A DNA stretch of 64,000 nt from an uncultured bacterium (GTDB lineage Bacteria; Krumholzibacteriota; Krumholzibacteriia; Krumholzibacteriales; Krumholzibacteriaceae), in the NCBI GenBank assembly GCA_963813815.1, contig CAWFAD010000016.1:480001-544000 (forward strand). Direction: 5' to 3'. A program made the position numbers and the translations under genes. Below the pieces are notes generated by a model that saw only the letters and a program-made list of their open reading frames with translations, had not been told where the DNA came from and searched no databases. Below, in pieces: positions 17,439 through 47,900 of the stretch (within the stretch, counting starts at the first letter, position 1; every line of letters starts with the position of its first letter).

Positions 17439-18491
17439 TCAATCCTCACCTCCGAGGAACATGTTCGCGCGATGGGCCATCCATTCATGCGGCGGTAGGA
17501 ATCCACGCTCCTGAAACGCGTCGATGGCGTACAGGGCGACGAGCGGAGCCGCGACGAGCGGGGGCCACAGGGCGGCGAGAGCGGCGAGCGCCGCCGGTCC
17601 GAAGAAGAGGCGCTTCGCGTTCACGCGCCGCCGCGGGGGAACCTCGCCCCGCACGACGAGGCCGTTTCCGGCGTCGACCGTGACGGTATAGATGCGCTCC
17701 GCGTGGCGGTAGCGCAGGAGATACACGGGGTAGTAGTAGAGCGAGAGGCTGCTGTCGAAGAGCTGAAAGCGGCTCGCGCGCACCGTCGTCCCCGCTGCCG
17801 TCGCGAAGTGCGCGAGAAAGCTCAGGGCGTCGCGCCGCGCGGAGCGCTCGCTCCGCGTGGGGAGGGCGACCGTGTGCTCGCGGCGCCGCCCGGCGTCGAG
17901 CACGTCCCACTCGAGAAAATCGGTTCGGAACGAGATTCCCTGAAGCCCGAGGCTGGGGAGCACGCACGCCGGCGCGCTCCAGTCGATCCGTTTGAAGAGA
18001 AGCCGCGAGTAGGGAGTTCGTTCCTCGCGCATCGTCGTGCGCGTCTCGGTCGAGCGCGGATCGGCAGAGGCGATCTCGACCCGCACGAGCTTCGTGCGCT
18101 CGCCCGAGAGCCAGCCCATGACCCGGCCGCGAAGTCGCCAGAAAGGCACGTGCACGAGCCGCTGATCGACGATCGCGGTCTCGCGGGCGGAGATTCGGCC
18201 GCTCGATTCATCCGCGATCCACCGGATCGCCGCGAGCCGGGCCTTGCCCGGCGTGGTCGACGGTTTGAGAATGAAGCTCCGTAGACCGCGCGGCGCGGCG
18301 ATGAGGAGCGCCGACGAGCAGTAGCCGCAGCGGATGCTCCGTTCCCCTTCGTTGATGCGGAGCGCTCCGCCGCATGAGGGGCAGGTCGCCCCGAAGGCGA
18401 GCCCGCGATCGGCCGCTCTTCGGCCCCGCGAGGGGATCTCGCGCTCCGCTGACGCGCGTTCATCCATGGCGCTCGAATGCACGGCCGTCAT
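17439..18491 (-). CDS. Zinc-ribbon membrane protein, hypothetical
   Basis: CPSCGG..CGYC, HVPFW, YYPVY..Y..VDA.NG and C-terminal TM; ATGA-coupled to the upstream gene. Confidence 0.78.
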   Translation of the reverse strand: MTAVHSSAMDERASAEREIPSRGRRAADRGLAFGATCPSCGGALRINEGERSIRCGYCSSALLIAAPRGLRSFILKPSTTPGKARLAAIRWIADESSGRISARETAIVDQRLVHVPFWRLRGRVMGWLSGERTKLVRVEIASADPRSTETRTTMREERTPYSRLLFKRIDWSAPACVLPSLGLQGISFRTDFLEWDVLDAGRRREHTVALPTRSERSARRDALSFLAHFATAAGTTVRASRFQLFDSSLSLYYYPVYLLRYRHAERIYTVTVDAGNGLVVRGEVPPRRRVNAKRLFFGPAALAALAALWPPLVAAPLVALYAIDAFQERGFLPPHEWMAHRANMFLGGED

Positions 18492-19180
18492 CCCTTCGCC
18501 CGCTCCCGGAGCGTAAAGACGAGATACCCGGCCGACGCGGCCGCGGCCACAGCGGCGAGTCGGCCGAAAAAACCAGGCGTGACCTTCGCGAGCGTGAAAT
18601 ACACGGCGAAGAGAGCGGCGATCGAAAGTCCCAGTCCGAGGCTCGGCCTGCGCCTGCGCTCGGGGGGCAGATCCTCCGCGACGACCTGCCAGCTCTCGCC
18701 GACGACCGCCGCCCGGCCCCGCCAGCCGCCGGCCTCGTACTCGAGGGAATACACGGGAAGGTAAACGATCCGCGGCGCTCTCGGATCGACGCTGTCGGCG
18801 TCGACCACCGGTTCCGGCTGCTCGCTCTCGCTCAGGAACCCGTAGCTCCCGGCGGGAGGGTACGGCGCCTGATCGGCCGCCGTCCACGCGCCGGCCGCCG
18901 GAACGAGGGAGATCCCGCCGTCGTCATCCTCCGCCATGGAAAAGGGAATGAACGAGAAATCCGTCGCCAGGCGCGTCGCGCGCCGGCGCTCTTTCCGGGC
19001 GAGGTGCGATCGCAGCGATGCCTCGGCCGCCGCGTCGTCGCGCGCGTGCGAAAGGATGAGACGCTCGACTTCCCTGGGTTTGTCGAGGGCGAGGGATGCT
19101 CCGCAGAAGGAGCAAATGAGCATCGTTTGCCCCGGCTCGAACCGGTTCTCCCCGCCGCAGAGGCTGCATTGAACGAACAT
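18488..19180 (-). CDS. Zinc-ribbon membrane protein, hypothetical
   Basis: CSLCGG..CSFCG, IPF, YLPVY motifs and two C-terminal TM helices. Confidence 0.75.
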   Translation of the reverse strand: MFVQCSLCGGENRFEPGQTMLICSFCGASLALDKPREVERLILSHARDDAAAEASLRSHLARKERRRATRLATDFSFIPFSMAEDDDGGISLVPAAGAWTAADQAPYPPAGSYGFLSESEQPEPVVDADSVDPRAPRIVYLPVYSLEYEAGGWRGRAAVVGESWQVVAEDLPPERRRRPSLGLGLSIAALFAVYFTLAKVTPGFFGRLAAVAAAASAGYLVFTLRERAKG

Positions 19181-19222
19181 GGGAACCCGCCTGTGTTCCG
19201 CCGCCGCCGCGGCGCCCGCGCG

Positions 19223-20281
19223 CTACGCCTTGCCGCCTTCGAGGTTCTTGCCGCAGCCCATGCAGAACTTCGCGCCCGCCGGAACCTCGGTCTTGCAGCC
19301 GGGGCATTGGATCGAGCGCGCGACCGGCGCGCCGCAGGAGGCGCAGAAGCGCGCATCGGCCGCTATCTCCGCGCGGCATTTCGGGCAGAGGACCGCGTCT
19401 TTGACGGCGGACGCTCCGCCCTTCATTCCTTGGGCGATCATGCCTGGGATCATGAACCCGAGGCCGGCGCCCAGGCCGATTCCCATCCCGCCGGCCGCAG
19501 CGCCGCCCGCGCCGCCGTCTCCGCCGGAAGTCGCGGCGTCGCCCATGGCCTTCGCCGCCTTGAACTTGAAGAAGCTGTCGAGATCGCCCACCGCGGCGAG
19601 GCCGCTCCGCTCGTCGATCATCTTCTGCACTTCGGGGGGCGGGGTGATGGCGCTGAGGTAGAAGTCGGCGAGCTCCATGCCGTATTTGCGAAAGTCGCCG
19701 ACGAGGCGCTCCTTGATCTCGACCGCGAGCTCGTCGTACTGGCGCGGCAGATCGAAGATGGTGTCGAGCTTCTCGCCGAAGAGGTCGTTGATCCGGGCGA
19801 CGATCACGTCACGGAGATAGTCGCCGATCATCCCGCTCGTGTAGAAGCCCTGCGTGCCGACGACCGCGTTGATGAAGAGCGCGGGCTCGGCGATCTTGAA
19901 GGTGTAGACGCCGAAGGCTCGGAGCCGCACGAGGCCGAGCTTCGAGTCGGTGAAGGCCACCGGATCCTTCGTGCCCCATTTCTGGTTGATGAAGCTCTTC
20001 ATGTTGACGAAGAAGACCTCGGCGCGGAACGGGCTCTTGAATCCCCATGGGAGCGAGATGATCTTCGTGAGGATCGGCAGGTTCTTCGAGGTGAGGGTAT
20101 GTCGTCCGGGTCCGAAGATGTCGAGCCCCTTGCCGTCCTTGAAAAAGACCGCCATCTGGTTGTCCCGGACGATGAGCTGCGCGCCGATCTTGATCTCGGC
20201 GGACCCTTCCGGTGGAATGCGGTGAACGATCTCGTCGCCTCCGAGATCGAACCATTCCAGGATTTCCATGAACTGAGACAT
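19223..20281 (-). CDS. SPFH/band-7 (YdjI-like) protein with C-terminal double zinc ribbon
   Basis: [20 protein letters not shown]...NLP, KWGT, LRAFG, Gly-rich linker, CPKC/FCASCG/CPGC/FCMGCG. Confidence 0.9.
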
Positions 20282-20356
20282 ACCGGCCTCCCCTTCGCAT
20301 AGATAGAGTTTGTTCGTTGCGGGCGTCGTGCCCGGCCGCCCGATTGAGGACGAATG

Positions 20357-20372
20357 AGCAAAGGTAATGCCA
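20357..20372 (-). promoter_or_regulatory. sigma54 -24/-12 promoter of the SPFH operon
   Basis: Minus strand TGGCATTACCTTTGCT, near-consensus GG-N10-GC, about 75 nt upstream of the start. Confidence 0.75.
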
Positions 20373-20534
20373 AATCGGCGGTTAGCGCCATTTTGGAGGT
20401 CCGGCTGGCGCCGGCGGCCGGCCGGCCGCCGATATCCCATTTTCAAAAAAGGAGATATGACCTATACTGCAACCCGGGGTGGAGCGGTCCGGGGGAGGGT
20501 CGAGCGTGGAGTCCTGGCACGAAAGGAGTCGGTC

Positions 20535-20974: not shown

Positions 20975-22177
20975 ATGAAAGAACGCGGTGTTCCGATCGT
21001 GATGTATCACGGCGTCGGCCCCGATCGGGAGGGGTGGCCGTGGAACTACCTGTTCACGCCCTCTGACGTTTTCGAGCGCCAGATGCGGGCCCTCCGGGAT
21101 GAGGGATGGACGACGGTCACCCTCGCCGAGCTTCACGCGCACATGGCCTCGGGCGCGCCGCTTCCGCCGAAGCCGGTCGTGCTCACCTTCGACGACGGCT
21201 ACGCGGACAACTGGGTCTACGCGTACCCGCTGCTCAAGAAATACGGTCATCGGGCGGCGATCTGGATGAGCACCGATTTCGTCGATCCGCGCGGCGTGCC
21301 GCGTCCCACGATCGAGGACGTCTGGGCAGGGCGCCTTCGCGAAGCGGAGATCGATCCGCGCGGCTATCTCTCGTGGGCCGAGATGCGCCGCATGGCGGAG
21401 AGCGGCCACGTCGAGATACAGAGCCACGCGATGACGCACACGTGGTATCCGGTCGCGGAGGATATCGTCGACTTCCACCGTCCGGCGGGGGTGGACGATT
21501 ACGAGCCGCCGCTCTGGCTCGGCTGGAACATGTTCCCGGGACGGAAGCACGAGAGCATGCACCTGAAGCTCTCCGATCTCGTGCCGCTCGGCACGCCGGT
21601 CTACCGGCACGAGAAATCCCTCGCGGCGCGCCGCTATTTCGAGGACGAACGTCTGACGGAGAGGCTTCGCGCCCACGTCGCCTCCTCGGGCGACACGGCG
21701 TTTTTCGAGGAGCCCGGGTGGCGCGAGGAGCTCATGGAGATCGTGCGCGAGCACGGAGTGGGCGGCGGCCGGCTCGAGACGGAGAGGGAGTACGCCTTCC
21801 GCGTTCGCCGGGAGCTCGTCGAGTCGCGCAGGATGATCGAGGAGGCGCTCGGCGCGAAGGTGGAGTTCTTTTGCTGGCCGGGAGGCGGCCGGAGACCCGA
21901 AACGCTCCGCATGGCCGAGGAGGCGGGGTATCTCGCGACGACCACGCACTTCGAGGACCGCTCGCGGCGGAACGTCCGGGGACAGAACCCGCGCGAGCTC
22001 TCCCGCATCGGTTCGGGATCGCCGTGGACGTGGCGGGGAATCGCCATCAAACGCACCGGCCCCGGCTTCTTCATCGCCAACCTCGAGACCTTCGCCGGCG
22101 GCGAAAAATCGATTTGGCGCCTTCGCGCCCATAAACTACAATATCTCCTCCGGCACTTCGTTTCGGGCGCGCGCTGA
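20975..22177 (+). CDS. Polysaccharide deacetylase (CE4/NodB-like)
   Basis: PIVMYH, VVLTFDDGY.DN, IQSHAMTH and FCWPGG motifs. Confidence 0.9.
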   Translation: MKERGVPIVMYHGVGPDREGWPWNYLFTPSDVFERQMRALRDEGWTTVTLAELHAHMASGAPLPPKPVVLTFDDGYADNWVYAYPLLKKYGHRAAIWMSTDFVDPRGVPRPTIEDVWAGRLREAEIDPRGYLSWAEMRRMAESGHVEIQSHAMTHTWYPVAEDIVDFHRPAGVDDYEPPLWLGWNMFPGRKHESMHLKLSDLVPLGTPVYRHEKSLAARRYFEDERLTERLRAHVASSGDTAFFEEPGWREELMEIVREHGVGGGRLETEREYAFRVRRELVESRRMIEEALGAKVEFFCWPGGGRRPETLRMAEEAGYLATTTHFEDRSRRNVRGQNPRELSRIGSGSPWTWRGIAIKRTGPGFFIANLETFAGGEKSIWRLRAHKLQYLLRHFVSGAR

Positions 22178-22195: not shown

Positions 22196-23917
22196 ATGTT
22201 TCCGCCGCTGCCACCGGCGCTCATACGGAACGTCATTTATCCGGTCTACCGGGGGCTCCGGCGCGACCGGCTGCTCTCCGTCCTCGAGGAGCTCGAGCGG
22301 AACCAGTGGCTCTCCGCGCGGGAGATCGAGGACCTCCAGTGGAGCCGGCTCGCCGCGCTCATCCGCGGGATTGCCGCGTACGTGCCGTTCTACGAGGACC
22401 TGCTGAAACAGATCTCGCTCGCGCCCGAGGACCTGCAGAGCCCCGAGGATTTCCGGAGGATCCCGTTCCTCACGAAGGAGATCATCCGGAGCGCCGGGGC
22501 CCGGATGACGTCGAAGGATCCGATTCGGCGCGGCTTCCCGTCGAGCACGGGAGGGTCGACGGGGGAACCGCTCTTCTTTTACGGCGACGTTTCGACGGGC
22601 CCGCTCCGCAGGGCGAACGGGATGCGCGGGTTCCGATGGGCGGGGATCGACATCGGCGACCGGCAGGCGGTGCTCTGGGGCACCCACCTCGGCTCGGGGC
22701 GGCGCGAGCGGGCCGCGCAGGCGGCGCGGAACTATTTCAGCAACACGCTCTACCTGTCGACCTTCGACATGTCCGACGCGTCGATGGAGCGGTACGCGGC
22801 GAGGCTTCGCGCCTTCCGGCCGCAGCTCTTCACCGGATACCCCTCGGCGCTCGCGCTCTTCGCCGCCTTTCTCCGCTCCCGGCGGGCACAGGATATCCGG
22901 CCGCGCGCGGTCATCGCGAGCGGCGAGGAGCTCTACGAAAGCCAGCGCGAGCTCATCGAGGCCGTGTTCGGCTGCCGGGTCTTCGACCGGTACGGGAGCC
23001 GCGAGTTCGCCGGGGTGGCGCACGAATGCGAGGAGCACCGCGGACTCCACGTCATGAGCGATCTCTTTTACGTCGAGGTCGTCACCGAGAGCGGCCGCCC
23101 GGCGAGCGAGGGCGAGATCGGCGAGATCGTCGTCACGGACCTCTTCAACACGTACATGCCCTTCGTCCGCTACCGGACCGGCGACCTCGCCGTGACGACG
23201 GGGCGGACGTGCCCGTGCGGACGCGGGCTGCCGCTCCTCGAGCGGATCGAGGGACGGAGCTTCGACGCCATCGTCACGGCCGACGGCAGGCATATCGGCG
23301 GCTTTTTCTGGACGTGGCTCTCGCGCGCGGTGCCGGGCATCCGGCGCTTCCAGGTCGAGCAGCGCGAGCGGAGCGGCGTCATCTTCCGCTTCGTGCCGGG
23401 CCCCGAGTGGCGCGACGAATACGAGCGCTCGCTCGAGAAGAAAATCAGGGAGAACTGCGGCGACGGGTTCGGCGTTTCCTTCGAGCGCGTCGGAGAGATT
23501 CCCCTCACGCCGTCGGGCAAGTCGAAGTTCATCATTTCGAACGTCGGCGAGCGGCTCGTCGTGAAGTCGAAGATCCATCGCGCGACGATCACGGCCGAGG
23601 AGCCCGACGGACCCGACTGCATCGTGATCGACGAGGAGATCATGGAGCTCGCCAACATCTCCCGGAACGAGAAGGTGCTCATCGTCGATATGACGAACGG
23701 CGAACGCGTCGACGCCTTCGCCGTGCCGGGCGCGCGGGGCGGGGGAGCGGTGACGGTCTGCGGCGCCGCGGCGAAGCTCGTTCACACGGGGGACACCGTC
23801 GGCATCATGGCGTTCACCTGGTCCGAAGGCCCGACGGGGCGGTTCGCCAACATTCTCGTCGACGAGCGGAACCGGTTCGCCCGGTACCTCACCGAGAACG
23901 CCGGAGATACGGTCTAG
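22196..23917 (+). CDS. PaaK/CapK-family adenylate-forming ligase fused to a C-terminal PanD-like domain lacking the cleavage site
   Basis: STGGSTGEP, GYPS, YGSRE, PFVRYRTGD, IEGR and SGK motifs; from about 23549 KSKIHRAT..ID..NGER..GAAA.LV..GD.V.IMAF. Confidence 0.88.
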   Translation: MFPPLPPALIRNVIYPVYRGLRRDRLLSVLEELERNQWLSAREIEDLQWSRLAALIRGIAAYVPFYEDLLKQISLAPEDLQSPEDFRRIPFLTKEIIRSAGARMTSKDPIRRGFPSSTGGSTGEPLFFYGDVSTGPLRRANGMRGFRWAGIDIGDRQAVLWGTHLGSGRRERAAQAARNYFSNTLYLSTFDMSDASMERYAARLRAFRPQLFTGYPSALALFAAFLRSRRAQDIRPRAVIASGEELYESQRELIEAVFGCRVFDRYGSREFAGVAHECEEHRGLHVMSDLFYVEVVTESGRPASEGEIGEIVVTDLFNTYMPFVRYRTGDLAVTTGRTCPCGRGLPLLERIEGRSFDAIVTADGRHIGGFFWTWLSRAVPGIRRFQVEQRERSGVIFRFVPGPEWRDEYERSLEKKIRENCGDGFGVSFERVGEIPLTPSGKSKFIISNVGERLVVKSKIHRATITAEEPDGPDCIVIDEEIMELANISRNEKVLIVDMTNGERVDAFAVPGARGGGAVTVCGAAAKLVHTGDTVGIMAFTWSEGPTGRFANILVDERNRFARYLTENAGDTV

Positions 23918-23979
23918 GGTACTTTCCGGCGGCGCCCGTTTGTACTATATTTCCCCCCGGCGCCGGGGCGTGGAGCGTT

Positions 23980-24339
23980 ATGAAACGGTTGCTGCTCAAA
24001 TCGATGATCCTCAAGGCCACGGTGACGCAGGCCGACGTGCATTACGTCGGCAGCATCACGATCGACCAGGATCTCATCGAGAAGGCGAATCTCTGCGAGC
24101 ACGAGAACGTTCTCGTCGCCGACCGTTCGAACGGCCGCCGTCTCGAGACGTACGTCATCGTCGGGGAGCGGGGGAGCGGCGTCATCGCGATGAACGGCGC
24201 GGCCGCGCATCTCATCAACGAGGGGGACGTCGTCGACATCATGGCGTTCAGCTGGTCGAACGGGGAAGTGCATCCCCTCTTCATCGAGGTGGACCGGGCG
24301 AACCGTTTCGCGGGTTATCACGACGGGGACGTTTCGTGA
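23980..24339 (+). CDS. panD: Aspartate 1-decarboxylase proenzyme (atypical)
   Basis: HYVG-SITID cleavage site, NG.RLETY and NGAAAH; GGAG RBS; lies inside the 22306..24339 ORF. Confidence 0.9.
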   Translation: MKRLLLKSMILKATVTQADVHYVGSITIDQDLIEKANLCEHENVLVADRSNGRRLETYVIVGERGSGVIAMNGAAAHLINEGDVVDIMAFSWSNGEVHPLFIEVDRANRFAGYHDGDVS

Positions 24340-24379: not shown

Positions 24380-25501
24380 ATGTTCTCCATGAACCTGCGG
24401 TTGTTTCGCCTCATGTCGATCCCGGTCGAGATCAACCTGAGCTGGCTCTTCGTGCTCGCGCTCATGACGTGGACCTTCGCGACCGGCTTCTACGCGGACG
24501 CGCTTCCCGACGGCAGCAGGCTCGAGCTCTGGGGGCTCGGTTTCATCACGGCGATTCTGGTGTTTGTCTCGATCCTGCTCCACGAGTTCAGCCATTCGAT
24601 CGTCGCCTCCCGCAACGGTCTTCCGATACGCAAGATCACGCTCTTTCTCTTCGGCGGCGTCGCCCAGATGGAGCGCGACGTCGATAACCCGACGGTCGAG
24701 CTCAAGATGGCGGCGGCCGGCCCGGCGATGTCGGTCGTGCTGGCGGCTCTGTTCTTCGCGCTCTCGAGGATCTTCTCGCAACACCGTCTCGTGTACGTCC
24801 TCATGAACAATCTCGCCTACGTCAATCTCCTCGTGCTCGGATTCAACATGGTGCCGGGTTTTCCGCTCGACGGCGGCAGGATACTCCGCGCCGCGATCTG
24901 GCGCGCGACGGGAAACGTGCAGAAGGCGACGCGCATCGCGAGCCGGATCGGCGGCGCGTTCGCGATCGTGCTCATCGTCTACGGCGTGATCAATCTCTTC
25001 GGCGGCGTCATTATCGGCGGACTCTGGCTCATCTTCATCGGTTTTTTCCTGCGCCAGGCGGCGCAATCGGGATATCTGCTCGTGACCTTCAAGCAAACGC
25101 TCGGGCACCTGCGGGTCTCCGACGTCATGCGCTCGCCGGTCGTGACGGTGGACGCCTCGGAGAGTCTGCGTCGCCTCGTCGACGACTACGTTCTCCGGTA
25201 CCACTACGCGTCGTTTCCGGTGATCGAGGGAGGACGGCTCGCGGGCATGGTCTCGCTCAAGGACGTCAAGCGGGTCGACATGTCGGCGTGGGGCGAGGCG
25301 AGCGCGGGGGAGATCGCGGATCGCGGGATCGTGCCGTACGCGCTCAGCCCGGAGCAGCCGGCCGAGGCGCTCGTCGGCCTCATGATGAAAAAAGGATACG
25401 GCCGGCTGCCGGTCGTGGACGGCGAGGGCAGGGTGGTCGGGATCGTATCGAGGCGCGACCTGATGGAAACGATCAAGATGATGGCGTATCTCGAGGAGTA
25501 G
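24380..25501 (+). CDS. Site-2 protease (M50) with CBS pair
   Basis: HEFSH, AAGP, FNMVPGFPLDGGR and two CBS domains. Confidence 0.93.
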   Translation: MFSMNLRLFRLMSIPVEINLSWLFVLALMTWTFATGFYADALPDGSRLELWGLGFITAILVFVSILLHEFSHSIVASRNGLPIRKITLFLFGGVAQMERDVDNPTVELKMAAAGPAMSVVLAALFFALSRIFSQHRLVYVLMNNLAYVNLLVLGFNMVPGFPLDGGRILRAAIWRATGNVQKATRIASRIGGAFAIVLIVYGVINLFGGVIIGGLWLIFIGFFLRQAAQSGYLLVTFKQTLGHLRVSDVMRSPVVTVDASESLRRLVDDYVLRYHYASFPVIEGGRLAGMVSLKDVKRVDMSAWGEASAGEIADRGIVPYALSPEQPAEALVGLMMKKGYGRLPVVDGEGRVVGIVSRRDLMETIKMMAYLEE

Positions 25502-38020: not shown

Positions 38021-41000
38021 ATGCGGGTCGTTTCGATCAGGGCGACTGCGCGCGCGACAGTCGGCACGCGAGGCTGCTCCTCCGCCCGGCCGGCGGCCAT
38101 GGGTCGCGGGCGGAAGCGCTGCGGGCGGCGCTCTGCGCCCGCCGTCATCCTGCTCGGCTTCGCGGCCCTTCTTTGGCCCGCCGCCGCTTCGAGCGCGGAT
38201 CCGATCGCGGATCTCATCGCGTGCGCCGATTCTCTCGCGCGGGCCGGCGATGAGCGCGGATTCGCCGGGCTCGTGCGCGATCGCGGGATGCTCATCGGCG
38301 CCGCGGTCGGCCGGCTGCTCGACGCGGCCATCGAAGCCGGCGAGGCGGGAGACGGCGATTCGGAGCGGGAAACCGCGGCGCTCGCCGGGAGGCTCGCCGC
38401 GGTCCGTGCGGAGCGAGCCGGCGCCGGGACGCCGCTCGAGCTCGTGCTCGCACAGAATAAATGGACGGGCGAGCAACGGGCCCTTCGCGCGCGGGCGCGG
38501 GCGATCGAGGCGGAAGCGGTCGCGGCTCGTGACGCCGGAGAGCTCGATCTCGCCGCGACGAAATTCCGGGAAGCGTTGGAGCTCTACCGGCTCATCGACG
38601 ACCGCCGTTCGATCGCGGTGGCGTGGGGGAGTCTCGGCGTCGTTCACTGGTCCCGGGGCGATTGGGAGGCCGTTCGCGACTGCTACACGCGCGCCCTCGA
38701 GGCCCGGCGCGGCATCGAAGACCGGATGCTCGAGGGAAAGAGCCTGAACGGGCTCGGTTCCGTCCACTTCCAGATGGGAGATTTCGATACCGCCGTCGCG
38801 TTCTACCGGCGCGCGGCGGCGCTCCGCCGCGAAATCGGAGACGCCGGGGGGCTCGTGCAGACGCTCAATTACCTCGGCGCGACGCTCGATCGGATGGGGC
38901 GTCTCGGCGAAGCGGCCGAAACCCTCGAGGAAGCGCTCGGCGAGATCGGCGCCGCGGACGATCCGCTTCGCCGCGTCGAGTTCCTGAACACGCTCGGGAG
39001 CACCCTTTTCAAAATGGGCCGTCTGAAGGGCGCTGAAAGCGCGGCCCGCGAGGCGGTCGATCTCTGCGAGGCCGTCGGAGAAACGAATTTCGAGGCGAGC
39101 TGCAGGATCAATCTCGCCGATCTTCTCAATGCGACCGGGAGATATCGGGAGGGTATCGCCGAGCTCGATCGGGTGAGCCGTTCGCTCGAGCGGGTGACCG
39201 ACACCACGATCCCCTACTCTCTCTATCGAACCCGCGGGCTCCTCTATCTCGGCATGGGAGAGCTCGAACAGGCCCGAAACGATCTGGTGCGAAGCCTGGA
39301 GCTGGCCGAAGCCTCCGGCGCCGCGGGCTGCCGCATACAGGCGTTCATCAATCTCGCGAGCCTTTTCATGGAATTGCAGGCCGTGGAGGAAGGGCTCGAG
39401 TACGCGCAGCGAGCGTCGGATCTCGCGGCCGAGTCGCAGGATCTTCCCCTGCTGCGCGACGCGCTGCTCGTCACGGCCGCCCTCAACGAGCAGCGGGGGC
39501 GTTACGAGGATGCGCTCGCTCTCTATCGGCGCGCGGCCGATCTGGACGAGGAGCTCGGAAACAGGTGGGACGCGGTCTCGGACAGGATATCGATCTGCAA
39601 CTCGCTCGCGGCGCTCGGAAGGCGCGTGGAAGCCCGAAACGGATTCCGCGACGTCCAACCGGCGGCCGCCGAGCTCGAGACGCGGAGCTTCGACGGGGTC
39701 ATTCATTTCGGCATCGGCCATACCTACGAGACCGTCGATCGGGACAGCGCGGCATGGCACTACGAGCGGGCCCTCGAGTGCCTCGAGAAGGAAAGGGCCT
39801 CCATCGGCGGGAGCGAGCTCCGGAGCGGATTCCTCTCGGGCGACAAACGCCGGTTGTACGAGGAGGTCGGCATCTACTACGCGGCGGAGGCCCGCGCGAG
39901 CGGCGACGCGGCGTGGGCCGACAGGGCGTTTCGGACGATCGAGAGGGGCAAGGCGCGGGGCCTGCTCGATCTGCTCGGGGCGCGCGTCGCGGCCGATTGT
40001 CCGCCCGCGGAGGAAGCTCTCCTCGATTCGATCTATCGGCTCGATCCCGGCGCTCCCGGCTACCGCGAGCGGAAGCTGCTCGCCGAGAACCGGTACGCGG
40101 AGATGAGGGACAGGCGAATGGAAACCTCGCTCGGAGGCCTGCGGCCCGCGGCCGAGGTATCCTCGATTGCCGATGTCAGGGCTCAATTGACGGCGGGGAC
40201 TGTCGTATTTTCATACGCGCTCGGCGATACGGCGTCGCTCCTCTGGGTCATCGATTCGAACGGGTGCGATCTGCACCGGCTTCCGGGCCGTTCCGCTATC
40301 GACCTCGAGGTCATGCGGTTCAGGGATGCGATGGCGAGACCGGGAAAGCGCGACGACGTTCTCGTTTCCGCTTCGCGAAATCTCTACAGAACACTGGTCG
40401 AACCCGGCGCCGCGAGGCTCGAGGGCGCGAAATCGATCGTGTTCGCGCCGGACGGCTCGCTCTTCGAGCTGCCGTTTGAGGCGCTTCTCACCGGCGAGCC
40501 GGCCGAGGGGGCCGGTTGGCGGGGCATGCCGTTTCTCGCCGGGGCCTTCACGACGCTCTATGTCCCGTCGGGCACCATATTTTGCAGCCTGCGCTCCGCC
40601 GTTCGACCGCGGGATTACCGGAAGCAGCTGCTCGCCGTCGGCGATCCCGATCTTTCGGCCTTTCCCCAAGCCCCCGGGGGCGAAACGAGGCTACCCGAGC
40701 TGCCGTACTCGAAGGTCGAGATCGAATCGATCTGCGCCCTTCTCGATCGGGGGCAGGCGGATATGCTCTGCGGGAAAGAGGCGAGCGAAGGCCGGCTGAA
40801 GGCGTATCTGCGGGGGGGCTGCCCGCGCATCGTGCACCTGGCCGCTCACGGGCTCGTCGACCGCGTCGAGTCCGCCGCTTCGTGCGTCGCGCTCTGCCCC
40901 GACACGCTCGAGGGAGAAGACGGCTATCTTCATACGCTCGAAATACTCCAGATGCCGTTCGATGCGGCCCTCGTCGTGGTGAGCGCCTGCGAATCGGCCG

Positions 41001-41275
41001 TCGGGCGGGTGAGCAGGGGAGAAGGCGTCATCGGGCTGAGCCGGGCGTTCATCGGCGCCGGCTCCGGAGGCGTCGTGGCGAGTCTCTGGGCCGTGTCGGA
41101 TCGCTCGACGGCGGAGCTCATGAGAATATTCTATGAACACATGATGACCGAACGGAGGCCCGCGGCGAGCGCTCTCGCCGAGGCGAGGCTCGCGCTGCTG
41201 CGCTCGCCGGATTTTTCCCATCCGTTTCATTGGTCTCCCTTTGTGGCGGTCGGAACGGACAGGATGCCCTGGTAG
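38021..41275 (+). CDS. TPR-CHAT (caspase-like) protease with predicted signal peptide
   Basis: VILLGFAALLWPAAASSA leader, many TPRs, PDGSL.ELPFEAL, VHLAAHG (His), VVSACES (Cys), VVASLWAVSD and HPFHWSPF. Start may be 38099. Confidence 0.92.
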   Translation: MRVVSIRATARATVGTRGCSSARPAAMGRGRKRCGRRSAPAVILLGFAALLWPAAASSADPIADLIACADSLARAGDERGFAGLVRDRGMLIGAAVGRLLDAAIEAGEAGDGDSERETAALAGRLAAVRAERAGAGTPLELVLAQNKWTGEQRALRARARAIEAEAVAARDAGELDLAATKFREALELYRLIDDRRSIAVAWGSLGVVHWSRGDWEAVRDCYTRALEARRGIEDRMLEGKSLNGLGSVHFQMGDFDTAVAFYRRAAALRREIGDAGGLVQTLNYLGATLDRMGRLGEAAETLEEALGEIGAADDPLRRVEFLNTLGSTLFKMGRLKGAESAAREAVDLCEAVGETNFEASCRINLADLLNATGRYREGIAELDRVSRSLERVTDTTIPYSLYRTRGLLYLGMGELEQARNDLVRSLELAEASGAAGCRIQAFINLASLFMELQAVEEGLEYAQRASDLAAESQDLPLLRDALLVTAALNEQRGRYEDALALYRRAADLDEELGNRWDAVSDRISICNSLAALGRRVEARNGFRDVQPAAAELETRSFDGVIHFGIGHTYETVDRDSAAWHYERALECLEKERASIGGSELRSGFLSGDKRRLYEEVGIYYAAEARASGDAAWADRAFRTIERGKARGLLDLLGARVAADCPPAEEALLDSIYRLDPGAPGYRERKLLAENRYAEMRDRRMETSLGGLRPAAEVSSIADVRAQLTAGTVVFSYALGDTASLLWVIDSNGCDLHRLPGRSAIDLEVMRFRDAMARPGKRDDVLVSASRNLYRTLVEPGAARLEGAKSIVFAPDGSLFELPFEALLTGEPAEGAGWRGMPFLAGAFTTLYVPSGTIFCSLRSAVRPRDYRKQLLAVGDPDLSAFPQAPGGETRLPELPYSKVEIESICALLDRGQADMLCGKEASEGRLKAYLRGGCPRIVHLAAHGLVDRVESAASCVALCPDTLEGEDGYLHTLEILQMPFDAALVVVSACESAVGRVSRGEGVIGLSRAFIGAGSGGVVASLWAVSDRSTAELMRIFYEHMMTERRPAASALAEARLALLRSPDFSHPFHWSPFVAVGTDRMPW

Positions 41276-41920: not shown

Positions 41921-44900
41921 ATGTTTCGCAAAAAAATCATCGCGATCGTAACCGGCGTCTTCCTCGCGCTCCTGCTCTCGATGGGCATCGAGGGGCAGAT
42001 CAGCGGGTTCATGGACGGGGACGGCGATGGGGTTCCCGATTCGACCGATCTCTGCCCGTTCGAGGACGCCTCGTATTTCGACCGGGACGGCGACGGATGT
42101 CCCGATCAGGTTCGCAGCGCCCGGCACGTCGAGTACTGGGACGCGGACGATATGCCCTTCGTCTACGCGATTCACGAAGGGGGAGCGCCGGGCATCGACG
42201 ACGGAAGCGATTTCGCCGCGCTGCAGGCGGGCATGAATGTATGGGCCGCCGTCCCCGGCACCGACTTTTCGCTGCTCTACGGCGGCACGACGGCGCAATC
42301 GGTCGCGGCCGCGCTCGACCGGGTGAACCTCGTCACCTTCGAGGACGACGAGTATTACTTCCCCTCCGCCGTACTGGCGGTCGGAATTTCGACCTCGTTC
42401 ACGGTCGATAGCCTCTACGACGGCACGTTCTATCGCGCCGGTCAGATTCTCGACGCGGATATGATATTCAATCCGTCGAAGACGTTCGTCACGGCGACCG
42501 CGGGCTCGGACGGGGCGGATATCGCGAGCATAGCGGCTCATGAAGCCGGGCATCTCTTCGGCATTTCGCACGCCGCGGTATGGACGTCGACGCTGTTCTT
42601 CGTGCTCGGTCCTGGGGGCGCCTCCGCGGATCTCGAGCGCGAGGACGAGCTGATGTTTCTCCGGTCCTATCCGGATTCCGCCACGCTCGCGACCTCGAGC
42701 CGGCTCGGCGGGACGGTCGCCGACGGCTTGTCGGGCGAGCCGATTCCCGGCGCGATCGTGTTCGCGGTGAGCGCGTCGACGGGAGATACGCTCGGCTGCG
42801 ACTATACCCTTCCGGACGGAAGCTATCTGTTTCTCGGCCTGCCGGACGGCGAATACTACGTGGACATATATCCTCTGGATGCCTCGGCGCCCATCGGGTA
42901 TATGCAGCCGGGCCACGTCAATTGGCTCGTCGCCTCAACCGCCGTGACGAGCTTCAAGCCGGAATCGTGGGACCTCGCCGAATCGTTCGACGACGATCCG
43001 TCCGCGCGGGACGCGGTGGCGGTGAGCGCCGGAGCGATGACGACGGCCGATCTCGTGACCGATATCGACGTGACGCCGCCGGCCGTGGTCGAGATCATCC
43101 CGGAGAGCGGAGCGGTGGGGGTATACGCGAGCGCGGTGGTGCTCGCCCGGTTCTCGGAGCCGATCGATCCGGAAACGATCGCCGGCAACTTTCGACTCGT
43201 GAACACGTCGTCTCTCGCGTCCGTGGGCGGAAGCGCCGGCGTTTTGAACGGAGATTCGCTGATCGCCTTCGCGCCGTCCGCCTCCCTCGCCTTCTCGACG
43301 CGATACGAGCTCACCATCGACGCGGGAATAGCGGATCGATTCGGCAACCCGCTCGGAACGCCGTTTGTCGCCTCCTTCACGACCGAAGCCGAGCCGCCGC
43401 TTCATGTCGCCGGCATCGTTCCCGCGTCGGCCTCCGCCGGGTCGGTTGTTATCTTCACGGGAACGGGGTTCGATCCGGATCCTGACGCCACAACGGTGCA
43501 TTTCGCCGGCGCCGACGCCGTGCCGGTCGACGCCTCGGCGACGGCGCTTGTCGTGTGGGTGCCGCCGGAAGCGGAAACGGGCGAGGTGACGATCGAAAAC
43601 TCGCTCGGCGCGAGCAACGGAATACTCTTCACGGTGCTGCCCTCATCCGAGGTCGCGAGGATCTATCAGGCGGGCGTCGTCGGAACGGACGACCTGCCGA
43701 GATCTCTCGCGGTGACGCCCGATGGAGCGTACGTCTATGTCGCCACTGCCGGTGGGTTGCTCGCGGCGGTCGCCGATCCCGGCAACCCCGATTTTCTCGC
43801 CGTGACGAAGATCGACGTGGCCGGCGGGCTGACCGATCTCGATGTAACGCCCGACGGAAAACGGGTCTACGGCGTTTGCCGGACGCTCGGTCTGATCCAC
43901 GTGTTCGACTCCGATCCGGGCGACGGCGCGCTGTTCAACACTCGTATAGCGACGCTTTCGACGGGCAAGGCGCCCCTCGGCGTGCTCATCGAGCCGACCG
44001 GAACGCGCGCGTTCGTTCCCGTCGAAGGCGGCGCCGTCCAGATCTGGGACGTATCGCGCTCCAGCGCGAGCGTGCACGAGCAAGTCGGCGTCATACCGCC
44101 GGCCGATCCCAACATCCTCGGTAAAATGGCGATCGATCCGGCGGGGGAACGATTGCTCGTTCCGACGACGACGGGCAGACTGCTCGCCTTCGACCTCGCT
44201 TCTCTCGCCCTCGTCGCCGAGGCTGGAATCGGATCCGAGCCCCGCGACGTGGCGATCGATCCGGCCGGGATGCGCGCCTATGTGAGCGACGAGGCCGGCA
44301 ACGTGTCCGTCATCTCCCTCGCCGGCGTCTCGTACGTGCAGGATATTCCGGTCGGCGGCTCGCTGCGCGGCGTCGACATAACGCCCGCGGGACAGTTTCT
44401 GTACGTCGCGAACCGGGAAACGAACGTCCTCGGCATCGTCGATCTCCGCGAAGACAGCCCGTCGTTCAGGCACGTCGTCGCGACGATTCCGCAGGGGATC
44501 AATCCGGTGGACGTCGCGCTCTCGCCGAACGGCCTGTACGCCTATTCGATCGCGGAGGAAGAGCGCATCCTCTCCGTGGCGGCGATCGGCGTGGGGCCCG
44601 CCTTCCGGAGCCTCTCCCGGCGGGCGGGACCGGTCGGGACGAAACTCGTGATCGCCGGCTCCGACTTCGAGGGCCCCTGCGCGATCGATTTCACCGGTTC
44701 GGGCGATACTCCGATCCGGGCCGTTCCCGAGCGTTCGTCGGGGACCGCGCTCGTCGTCGCGGTGCCCGAGGGAGGGCAGAGCGGGCCGGTCAGCGTCGTG
44801 GACGGAGAGGGAAAGCGATCGAACAGCCAGTACTTCGAGGCGCTCGGCCCCACTCCCGAACCGGGCCGGGTGCGCCTCATGTACGGCGCCGGAATCGATC

Positions 44901-47900
44901 CGGCGATCGACGCCGCTGCCGTGATGGCGATCGCTCCTTCGGGGGATCAGGCGATCATCGGAACGGAGAACGGCCAAATCCTCTGTGTCGATCTCGACCC
45001 TTCGAGCTCCACGTACAACCAGACGCTGCACGTTTCGACGATCGGATCGAAGGCCGTCACGGCTCTCGCCGTCGTTCCTGACGGGAGCGTCGCGTACGTG
45101 GCGCTCGAAAACGCCGGGACGGCGGCCGAGTTCTACGTCGTCGACGTGAACCGACATAGCGCCGCCTACGGCTCCGTCGTCGGCGCGGTGGACTTCAGCT
45201 CGTATCCGGCGATCGTGAGCGAGGAAGACAGCGCGGTTTCGGAAGACGAGTCCTGCGTCTACGCGGGCGAAATATCGATCAGCCCGGACGGGGCGATCTG
45301 TCTCATCCAGGACGCCTGCTCGGACCTGATCTATATGGTCGACATCCTTCCCGGTTCTCCGACGCAGAACGCGGTCGTCGATACGATCTGCATGCCGAGA
45401 GTGACCGAGATCGCGTTTCATCCGGGCGGCGAGTACGCGTACGTCACGTCGGCGTTTCTCCTCAGGGCGTATGTTCTCGACATGAATCCGGAGAGCAGCA
45501 CGTTCGGAGCAATCGTGAACAGCATCGAGCTGCCCTCTCCGCACGCGAATTCCTCGCTGATATGCCATCCGCTGGCGCTCGACTTCGCGCCGGACGGGTC
45601 CCGGTGTCTGGTGCTCGGCAAGGATTTCACCGAGAATCAACCGTACATCCACACGCTCGACACCACGGATCCCATGAATCCGGTGCAGATAGGCGTCGAT
45701 CTTTTCGGCGAGCCGTTTCCGATGTCCGGAACGAAGGCGATCCGGATATCGCCTCGCGGCGACCGGTGTGTCGTCGCTCTCAACGATATCGGGCTCATGA
45801 ACCTCGATATCTCGGAGCGCCCCTATGAGGTGCTCGATCATTTCGCCGATGATTTCTACGGGATCGAGGTCGAGACGGGATTCGCCCCGGACGGCGAAAA
45901 CGTCTTCGTCCTGAGCGCGGCCGCCGACTCGCTCATCACCTTCGACTTCGGGGACGCGGCGTCCGTGTCGCTCGCGTCGGGCGACGGCCAGACGGGCGTC
46001 GCCGGGGAAATTCTTCCCGCCGGGCTCAAGGTGCGGGTCATCGACGGAAGCGGCGAGCCGGCGGCCGGCATCGCCGTCACGTTCCTCGTGACGGAGGGTG
46101 GCGGTTCCTTCGTCGGCACGGGAACGCCGCTCGCGATCGCGGCCACCGATCCGGAGGGGATCGCGAACGTCGCCTGGCGACTCGGACCGAACCTCGGCGT
46201 CCAGCGCGTCAGCGCCTTCGGATACGGGCTCGCCGGCTCGCCGGTCGGCTTTTCCGCCGAGGCGGTCGAGAATCCGGCCGAGCTGCCACTCGAGCTCGCC
46301 GATCTCGCGCCCGCGACCGGAGCGGCGGAGGTGAGCGTGACGACGGCGATCAAGGGCACGTTCAGCCGCGCCGTCGATCCGGCGACGGTGGATGCGTCGG
46401 CGTTTTCCCTGCGGAAGGCGGACGACTCCTCGCCGGTCCCCGTTTCATACGGCTTCACGTCGGAGAATCGCGAGGTATCGCTGGCTCCGCTCGTCAATCT
46501 CGAGTTCGGCGCCGAATACGTGATCGAGATCTCCGGCGCGTTGCTGGATGCCGACGGCGGACCGGTGCAGAATCCGCTGGCGTCCAGCTTCACGACCTCG
46601 GCCTCCGTTCCGCCCGCGCTCGACGCCGTCAGTCCCCCCGGCGCCGTCGCGTACACGCCGGTCATACTGTCGGGCGAGGGATTCGACGCGGTGCCGTCGA
46701 ACAACACGGTGCTCTTCAACGACGTTCCTGCCACGCCCGTCGCGGGCGGGTTCGATTACCTCGAGGTGAAGGTGCCGGCCGGGATCGAAAGCGCGCTCGT
46801 CCGCGTGGTCGTCGGACCGGACACCTCGAACGCCGTTGCGTTCGCCGGGCTCGTGCCGGAATTCGAGCCCATCGACGAGGTGATCGCGACGGTGAACACC
46901 GGCTACGCCACGCAGGCGGTGGCCGTGACGTCCGACGGATCGAGGGCCTATGCCATATCGCCCGAATCGGATGTCGCCGTGCCGGTCGACCTCGTCAATC
47001 TCGCATCGCTCGCCCCCATTTCGGTCGGAGACCACCCCGTCTCGATCGCGATGCATCCGAGGAGCACGTTCGCGTTCGTCGCGAACTTCGGCTCCGGGAC
47101 GGTTTCGGAGATCGACGTCGATCCGGCATCGCCGTACTATCACTCGATCCGCGCGAATCTGCCGGTCGAGGCGAATCCGATCGATCTCGCGGTGAGTCCC
47201 GAGGGCGATCGGCTCTACGTCGTCAACGCCGGGTCGGCTTCGATCAGCATCATCGACACCGACGAGGAAAGCGAGACGTATCACGAGGCGCTGGCGACCG
47301 TCGAGACCGAATCCGCCGTGAACTGCGTGGCGGTCGCGCCCGACGGCTCGAGGATCTATATCGGCACCGATTCCGGGTTCATTGTCCTCGATCCGATGAG
47401 CTATGCGGTCCTCGCGAGGATCAGCACCGGCTCCGCGACGAAGACGGTGACGATCGTGCCAGATGGAACGCTCATGTTCCTGCTCACGGACGGCGGCGAG
47501 GTGTTCGTCGTCGACATCGAGCCGGGCAGCGCCACGGAAAACGCCGTCGTGGCCCACATCGGCGTGGGTTCGACGGTCAGCTCGGTGACCATCAAGGCCG
47601 ACGGAACGCTGCTCTACCTGATTCAGGAGGAGTCCGACGTCGTGCTGGTGGTTCTCATCGAGCTCCTCGACGCGGTCGCCGTGCTCGATCCGGGCGAAGA
47701 GCTGCCGCCGAAAACGGTGCGTGTCAGCGTGGTCGATTCGCTGTGGGCCGGCGAGGATCCGACGGCGCTCGCGTTCGATCCGACCGGTTCCGGACTGGCC
47801 TACGTTACGAACGCCGGACCGCGGACGATCACGGTGCTCAACGTCTCGGAGGTGCCGTACATCACCTGTACGGTGGCGGCGCCTCCCGACACCTTCGTCT

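Follow-up and report, generated by a model that had tools for sequence, protein, structure and literature searches.

The locus described here raises the question of why a bacterium would carry, next to each other, two genes of the aspartate 1-decarboxylase (PanD or ADC) family that have lost active site residues of opposite kinds. The two genes lie in a 64,000-nucleotide stretch of contig CAWFAD010000016.1 (positions 480,001 to 544,000, forward strand), called the window from here on, which belongs to an uncultured bacterium of the phylum Krumholzibacteriota and has a G+C content of about 65%. The first gene codes for a fusion of a PaaK-fold ligase with a PanD-like domain and the second for a stand-alone PanD; these are the only two PF02261 matches in the assembly, which comprises 2.53 Mb in 16 contigs and is 90.8% complete. 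Comparison of the sequences leads us to regard it as probable, although far from certain, that the two genes specify an obligate hetero-oligomeric aspartate 1-decarboxylase in which each active site is shared by two different subunits. The features on which this proposal is based are the following.

22196..23917, + strand: fusion gene coding for a 573-amino acid protein, PaaK-fold ligase plus PanD-like domain (AMP-binding/PaaK-like models match residues 36-360, PF02261 matches residues 454-560)
22196..23536, + strand: ligase part of the fusion, residues 1-447, a PaaK-fold adenylate-forming enzyme with intact core motifs
23549..23917, + strand: PanD-like domain of the fusion, residues 452-573 (PF02261, 84.7 bits)
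23918..23979, + strand: 62-nucleotide spacer separating the fusion and stand-alone genes, in which GGAG precedes the stand-alone PanD start codon (ATG) by a few bases
23980..24339, + strand: stand-alone PanD, 119 amino acids (PF02261, 126.2 bits; TIGR00223, 115.9 bits)
24004-24006, + strand: codon for M9 of the stand-alone PanD, at the K9 position
24010-24012, + strand: codon for L11 of the stand-alone PanD, at the H11 position
24049-24054, + strand: codons for G24-S25 of the stand-alone PanD, the pyruvoyl-forming site
24235-24237, + strand: codon for D86 of the stand-alone PanD, at the I86 position

The residues strictly conserved in PanD are, according to PMC3314653, Lys9, His11, Tyr22, Gly24, the pyruvoyl residue Pyr25, Arg54, Thr57, Tyr58, Gly73, Ala74, Ala75, Ile86, and Asn112. 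The same text assigns Pyr25, Thr57, and Tyr58 to the subunit that carries the pyruvoyl group (in cis) and has Lys9*, which forms an ion pair with the alpha-carboxylate, and Arg54*, which is responsible for specificity, coming from the other subunit (in trans, denoted by an asterisk). The adjacent-subunit side is made of strands 2-14, 41-48, 52-59, 82-94, and 104-108 (PMC11808261). According to PMC3975893, Thr57 is the residue required for PanD maturation, the zymogen has a hydrogen bond between Asn72 and Ser25, and the role of proton donor is ascribed to Tyr58. An earlier annotation of this DNA made without database searches, the sequence-only reading, had stated that Lys9, His11, and Arg54 are contributed by the neighboring subunit, and for Lys9 and Arg54 this is borne out by PMC11808261 and PMC3314653.

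Residues of both copies were numbered by aligning them, using HMMER, to the Mycobacterium tuberculosis PanD (2c45). The stand-alone PanD exceeds both family cut-offs (126.2 against 25 bits for PF02261, 115.9 against 106 bits for the TIGR00223 equivalog), and the fused domain exceeds the first and at 76.5 bits falls under the second. The stand-alone copy keeps Y22, G24, S25, R54, T57, Y58, and N72, and has M9 and L11 in place of the strictly conserved Lys9 and His11. The fused domain retains K459 (equivalent to K9), H461 (H11), and R504 (R54), and has D474-C475 for G24-S25, A507-F508 for T57-Y58, and C522 for N72, so that the Gly24-Ser25 cleavage site, Tyr58, and Asn72 are present in the stand-alone copy and absent from the fused domain. 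The sequence-only reading, having aligned the proteins by eye, had located the two copies at the positions now confirmed by the PF02261 matches and had described the loss of Lys9 and His11 from the stand-alone protein with Gly24-Ser25, Thr57-Tyr58, and Asn72 in place, and the reverse set in the fused domain (K9, H11, and Arg54 present; Gly-Ser, Thr/Tyr, and Asn72 gone); all of this agrees with the alignment to 2c45, which adds that the stand-alone copy also retains R54 and has I86 replaced by D.

When 208 genomes of the phylum were searched with PF02261, 89 of them gave matches. In the window's order, which consists of three families, 47 of 51 relatives have PF02261, nearly all of them with two matches; these 47 relatives and the window's own genome make up the 48 genomes referred to below. 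The sister families f5, f8, and f9 have one canonical PanD or none per genome, a single high-scoring copy being found in 8 of 12, 21 of 23, and 12 of 13 genomes, respectively, and families f4, f6, and f7 showed no PF02261 match in any of 108 genomes. Ten sites (positions 9, 11, 22, 24, 25, 54, 57, 58, 72, and 86) were read in each protein, the canonical string being KHYGSRTYNI, and this was the string in all 30 rows of single PanDs from the sister families. The 47 stand-alone rows read MLYGSRTYND (35), MMYGSRTYND (10), VLYGSRTYND (1), and MVYGSRTYND (1), i.e., position 9 is M in 46 relatives and V in one, position 11 is L in 36, M in 10, and V in one, R54 is always kept, and I86 is always replaced by D. 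Among the 45 fused domains readable at all ten sites (three further rows are fragments), K9, H11, D24, and R54 are found in every one, and Y22, G24, Y58, and N72 in none. When the sites at least 90% conserved in the 30 canonical PanDs were considered, K9 and H11 were the only ones present in 100% of the fusions and lost from the stand-alone copies, and Y22, G24, S25, Y58, I60, N72, and L78 were present in 100% of the stand-alone copies and lost from the fusions. The loss of Thr57 from the fused domain claimed by the sequence-only reading is true of the window (A507) and does not extend to the order as a whole, in which the window has the minority state (T in 39 and A in 8 of 47 fused domains). 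Thus, the complementary residue pattern is a fixed feature of the whole order and not of one genome.

Both copies are conserved to a similar degree, with a mean column identity of 70% for the fused domain and 72% for the free copy, and 23 columns of the fused domain are invariant across 38 genomes. In a quick-search tree, which is unrooted and cannot tell which copy is ancestral, the canonical, free, and fused groups each form one split, with Shimodaira-Hasegawa-like approximate likelihood ratio test (SH-aLRT) values of 93, 99, and 98, the value of the fused clade being 99. Five of the seven changes fixed in the stand-alone copy (positions 9, 11, 43, 48, and 86) map to strands of the adjacent-subunit side. 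As judged from these alignments, the free copy keeps the whole cis (pyruvoyl) face and has its fixed changes clustered on the trans face, and the fused copy is the reverse. In one close relative (locus L033, G058:C11) the fused PanD domain matches in pieces only (3.6 and 29.9 bits) and has X residues at positions 57-58, which may represent masked or poor sequence.

The two genes also travel together. Both are present in 45 of the 48 genomes, and in 40 the fusion gene is followed by the free PanD on the same strand, with a spacer of 14 to 345 nucleotides (median 97.5) in 39 of the 40 adjacent pairs and of 1171 nucleotides in one; in G063 and G075 the pair is interrupted by contig ends. None of the 45 readable fusions has a canonical panD beside it. 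The sequence-only reading had suggested a survey of whether the panD adjacent to such a fusion always lacks K9 and H11, and for K9 the answer is positive in 47 of 47 cases and in two divergent metagenome loci. One genome, G043, has in addition to its usual adjacent pair a second full-length fusion gene on another contig (L060, G043:C148), with a gene of glycosyltransferase family 4 (GT4) upstream and no free PanD beside it. RNA data for the window consisted of two 151-nucleotide contigs from one library (X20) mapping to 22889-23178, with nothing on the PanD parts, which is too little for a claim about transcription or co-transcription.

Comparison of a profile of the stand-alone copies to 1.84 billion cluster representatives yielded 4426 PanD relatives. 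Of the best 150 of these, 119 read KHYGSRTYNI at all ten sites, 137 have all of K9, H11, Y22, G24, S25, R54, T57, Y58, and N72, and no more than three belong to the stand-alone type. Metagenome contigs were then scanned with one of these three representatives, P0122, giving 80 loci with 82 PanD domains; 78 of the 82 have K9 and H11 and stand singly, without another PanD in the vicinity, and 75 of the 78 read KHYGSRTYNI. Two loci, L167 and L168, have a 575-amino acid fusion (KH.DCRTFCS) followed by a PanD with M9, and L167, which has a G+C content of 44%, carries deacetylase, fusion, PanD, and a peptidase of family M50 with CBS domains (M50-CBS) as a complete block. The free copy of this branch has retained His11, so that it is the loss of Lys9 that is universal. 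The ligase-PanD architecture was found in 116 of the best 120 protein clusters, and among the species genomes of GTDB full-length fusions occur only in Krumholzibacteriota-type records. A match to fusion residues 339-559 outside the phylum, L148, was rejected after it turned out to be an ordinary panC-panD pair; L144 gives an apparent long match to the same residues outside the phylum. Two other members of the PanD family were noted: P0264, a 148-amino acid protein that reads KHKDGRTSTD at the ten sites and is similar to the fused dead domain, although short, and P0220, a cluster of six members with 113-amino acid proteins reading KQQGCRTYND.

The motifs of the ligase core are intact in 37 of 42 full-length relatives and degenerate in five (G030, G035, G047, G051, and G073), in which the P-loop or A8 motif is altered, the A10 lysine is lost in four, and 65 to 75 N-terminal residues are missing in three. 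In all five the PanD domain keeps K9, H11, D24, and R54 and the free copy is next door; none has a deacetylase upstream. That the PanD pair is kept although the ligase has decayed argues for a function of the PanD-like domain together with the free copy, with the ligase as an add-on. The fused domain being as conserved as the free one, and its K9, H11, and R54 being kept when the ligase decayed, it cannot be considered a mere accessory of the ligase.

PanC is encoded in 203 of the 208 genomes of the phylum and in all 51 relatives of the order. Because PanC is present and a further PanD is not, beta-alanine for pantothenate has its obvious source in the pair. No match to panC (PF02569) or panB (PF02548) was found in the window's own assembly; the possibility that this genome has no pantothenate pathway was rejected considering the 51 of 51 relatives with panC, and the missing genes are best explained as a gap of a 90.8%-complete assembly rather than as biology. 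In families f4, f6, and f7, PanC is encoded in 106 of 108 genomes and there is no PF02261 PanD, so that beta-alanine must be made there by another route.

The hetero-oligomeric enzyme that we favor would function as follows. The stand-alone protein would self-cleave at Gly24-Ser25 to generate the pyruvoyl group and would supply the cis face, that is, Pyr25, Thr57, the proton donor Tyr58, Asn72, and Ala74-75. The ligase-borne PanD-like domain, predicted to be uncleavable, would occupy the neighboring place in the PanD ring and donate the trans face, Lys9*, His11*, and Arg54*, which would bind the two carboxylates of the substrate, Arg54* the beta-carboxylate. If the subunits alternated in a 2:2 ring, two of its interfaces would have the full set of residues and the other two would be inactive on either side. 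The lost cleavage site in the fused copy would keep the ligase covalently joined to the whole domain, and N-terminal extensions are compatible with PanD tetramers, as exemplified by tagged 143-amino acid E. coli chains in the PDB. The beta-alanine would serve pantothenate synthesis via PanC; in genomes with an intact ligase, it would be released beside an ATP-dependent amide- or ester-forming enzyme. The residue patterns with their conservation across the order, the linkage of the genes, and the ligase fold are observed, and the trans origin of Lys9 and Arg54 is taken from the literature; the hetero-oligomer with its 2:2 stoichiometry, the identity of the product as beta-alanine, and the substrates of the ligase are what we infer.

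Several observations weigh against this interpretation. Arg54 belongs to the trans set, yet every stand-alone copy has it (47/47), which the simple model does not require; since both partners keep this residue, the complementarity falls short of full symmetry. Position 86, likewise on the trans side, varies among the fused domains (I 18, G 15, S 14). The two genes are present but apart in five genomes (G033, G056, G065, G069, and G072), and the 94%-complete assembly of G034 contains a stand-alone PanD of the M9/L11 type but no fusion gene at all. A mirror-tree analysis of 23 genomes showed no specific co-variation: the correlation between stand-alone and fused domain distances was r = 0.59, which became a partial correlation of 0.25 after removing the M50 and ligase distances, and the values for the stand-alone copy against the ligase and M50 were 0.25 and 0.23, respectively. 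Finally, no data on K9A or H11A mutants were found in the literature searched for them, PMC4537548 included.

Some of these points would be accommodated if the stand-alone PanD were a self-sufficient homotetrameric pyruvoyl decarboxylase with a pocket rebuilt around M9, L/M11, and D86 for another substrate or regime, and the fused domain an independent ligand-binding or oligomerization module, so that the two genes would share a pathway and not an active site. Arg54 in 47 of 47 copies, the invariant Asp86, and the near-invariant Met9 look like a redesigned rather than a disabled face, G034 does have the stand-alone copy in the absence of the fusion, and the stand-alone gene stays with M50-CBS when the fusion gene moves off. 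However, this alternative needs two unrelated explanations for the mirror-image patterns and leaves unexplained why the fused domain keeps K9, H11, and R54 (45/45) without the cis residues, why that domain persists despite the decay of the ligase, and why, among the nearest 150 representatives and in the metagenome scan, the loss of K9 is restricted to genomes with the fusion. It must also face the fact that these genomes have PanC and no other PanD. We consider it unlikely, albeit the most serious of the competing explanations.

The fused dead domain could also be an activator or regulator of the stand-alone zymogen that promotes cleavage or relieves autoinhibition and donates no residues, in the manner of PanZ/PanM or of a prozyme. 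There are precedents for both modes of action: maturation of PanD needs a partner protein in some bacteria (PMC3398536, PMC3473359, PMC3975893), and dead paralogs activate the pyruvoyl enzyme AdoMetDC and DHS (PMC5201418, PMC3663545). A pure activator, on the other hand, would not need the substrate-binding Lys9, His11, and Arg54 to be invariant (45/45), and it would not permit the catalytic subunit to dispense with Lys9 and His11, and this makes such a role improbable. The view that the fused domain is a relic in the course of decay, and that the pattern arose by chance or from faulty annotation, is hardly credible, since the fusion frame is intact in every full-length locus examined, the architecture is shared by those 116 of the best 120 clusters, and the domain forms one clade (SH-aLRT 99) with its 23 invariant columns over 38 genomes.

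The role of the ligase in the proposed hetero-oligomer can be approached from its sequence and its company. All equivalog models were under their cut-offs (TIGR02155, 103.2 against 646.3 bits; NF041878, 113.7 against 700 bits; the DVU_1553 family model NF045666, 162.3 against 300 bits), i.e., there was no equivalog-level match to PaaK proper. An AlphaFold model of the ligase part had a predicted local distance difference test value (pLDDT) of 86.6, and its best Foldseek matches, with E values from 7e-29 to 1e-20, were BT_0428 (4r1l, 7e-29), PaaK1/2, HCL, ClxA, AjiA1, and NatL2. The motifs SSTGGSTGEP (residues 116-125), YGSRE (266-270), YRTGD (326-330), EGR (352-354), and PSGK (439-442) provide, together with the fold, the P-loop, YGxxE, TGD, GR, and A10 lysine of the ANL enzymes, and the PanD domain begins only about 9 residues after the A10 lysine (K442). 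From the model and these motifs the window ligase looks catalytically competent.

The genes that flank the pair in the window are the following.

20975..22177, + strand: CE4-type polysaccharide deacetylase gene, start ATG at 20975, directly upstream of the fusion gene (PF01522, 78.2 bits)
24380..25501, + strand: M50 (site-2-protease family) peptidase with two CBS domains, a conserved downstream neighbor (PF02163, PF00571)

In 24 of 55 stretches the gene immediately preceding the fusion, or else the stand-alone PanD, codes for a CE4 deacetylase, and GT4 accompanies the fusion in 19; the window has the deacetylase and no GT4 next to it. The nearest ligase-only homologs are 31-35% identical, and one of them, from Acidobacteriota, is located among deacetylases, GT4, and a Wzy-type gene. 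Given the frequent company of GT4 and CE4, decoration of a de-N-acetylated amino sugar would be the most likely task of the ligase, which might attach beta-alanine to such a sugar or use it in conjunction with one. The complete scheme, in which a 2:2 pyruvoyl decarboxylase makes beta-alanine on the very ligase that attaches it to an amino sugar produced by GT4 and CE4, is offered only tentatively and is clearly less probable than the split active site itself. Channeling of the product from decarboxylase to ligase, as imagined by the sequence-only reading, might conceivably take place, and it cannot be the sole reason for the pairing because the PanD pair outlives the ligase motifs in 5 of 42 fusions.

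The M50-CBS gene adjoins the stand-alone PanD in 38 of the 55 stretches, including those where the fusion gene lies elsewhere (it was noted staying with the free PanD at L041, L045, L048, L050, and L084), and a functional link between the peptidase and the free PanD is possible. Within 1.5 kb of the canonical PanDs of the sister families neither M50-CBS nor PanC genes were found, and for this reason positional orthology of the stand-alone copy could not be shown. Upstream of the block, a conserved pair is encoded at 18488-20446 (- strand), consisting of an SPFH/Band-7 protein that ends in a double zinc ribbon and a 230-amino acid zinc-ribbon-like protein; the former occurs in 17 related stretches and the latter in 10. 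Farther downstream, the window encodes a 1084-amino acid TPR and CHAT-domain protein (38021-41272) followed by a 2289-amino acid protein with Big_5, TIG, beta-propeller, and C-terminal FlgD_ig domains (41921-48787).

PanD is a textbook homotetramer and a tuberculosis drug target. Should the proposed hetero-oligomer prove correct, the locus would illustrate how an enzyme with shared interfaces drifts into obligate heteromery by complementary degeneration after duplication, and it would be a natural experiment on the roles of Lys9 and His11 in trans. The fusion to a ligase and the frequent presence of GT4 and deacetylase genes point to a use of beta-alanine outside coenzyme A synthesis in this uncultured phylum, which, if true, would mean an undescribed beta-alanyl-aminosugar metabolite or a decoration of surface glycans. 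The automatic annotations "aspartate 1-decarboxylase" and "phenylacetate-CoA ligase" are both likely to be wrong for either protein taken alone.

Both window copies share the fold family of the canonical PanD/ADC (PF02261, TIGR00223; 2c45, 1aw8, 1uhe, 6oyy), in which the active sites lie between neighboring subunits of the tetramer, and the stand-alone copy has the Gly24-Ser25, Thr57, Tyr58, and Asn72 of that enzyme. They differ in that each subunit of the canonical homotetramer carries both faces, whereas here no polypeptide has the complete set, and one of the partners is covalently joined to a ligase. Residues 1-447 of the fusion share the fold and core motifs of PaaK-family ligases (2y27, 2y4o, 4r1l, 6tm4, 6wuq, 9s45), from which the window protein is set apart by a score far under the PaaK equivalog cut-off (103 against 646 bits) and by its C-terminal PanD-like domain. 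A literature search found no paper describing a heteromeric or ligase-fused PanD, and a split-site heteromer would be the first in the family.

The synthesis of mycothiol and bacillithiol (MshA/B/C, BshA/B/C) follows a logic of GT4, N-deacetylase, and ATP-dependent ligase. The same order of enzymes is seen in 19 to 24 of the related loci, a resemblance in logic only: the deacetylase here is of the CE4 type (PF01522) and not LmbE-like, the ligase has the PaaK fold, and the window lacks an adjoining GT4.

PanZ is an unrelated protein of acetyltransferase fold that promotes maturation by binding outside the PanD ring, and is thus no paralog of PanD standing in for a subunit. The PanD-PanZ (PanM) system of gamma-proteobacteria is nevertheless similar in that, as described in PMC3473359, PMC3398536, and PMC3975893, a second protein is needed for functional PanD. 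Closer parallels can be found in trypanosomatids, where the DHS heterotetramer and the AdoMetDC-prozyme heterodimer, the latter based on a pyruvoyl-dependent enzyme like PanD, are active only with a dead paralog, according to PMC3663545 and PMC5201418. In those eukaryotic systems, binding of the partner has been shown, the partner is unfused, and the AdoMetDC prozyme relieves autoinhibition and donates no residues; in the PanD pair binding is inferred, the partner is fused to a ligase, and both partners would be impaired, on opposite faces. If the interpretation is correct, the route taken by the trypanosomatid prozymes would have been followed here in bacteria and in the PanD family.

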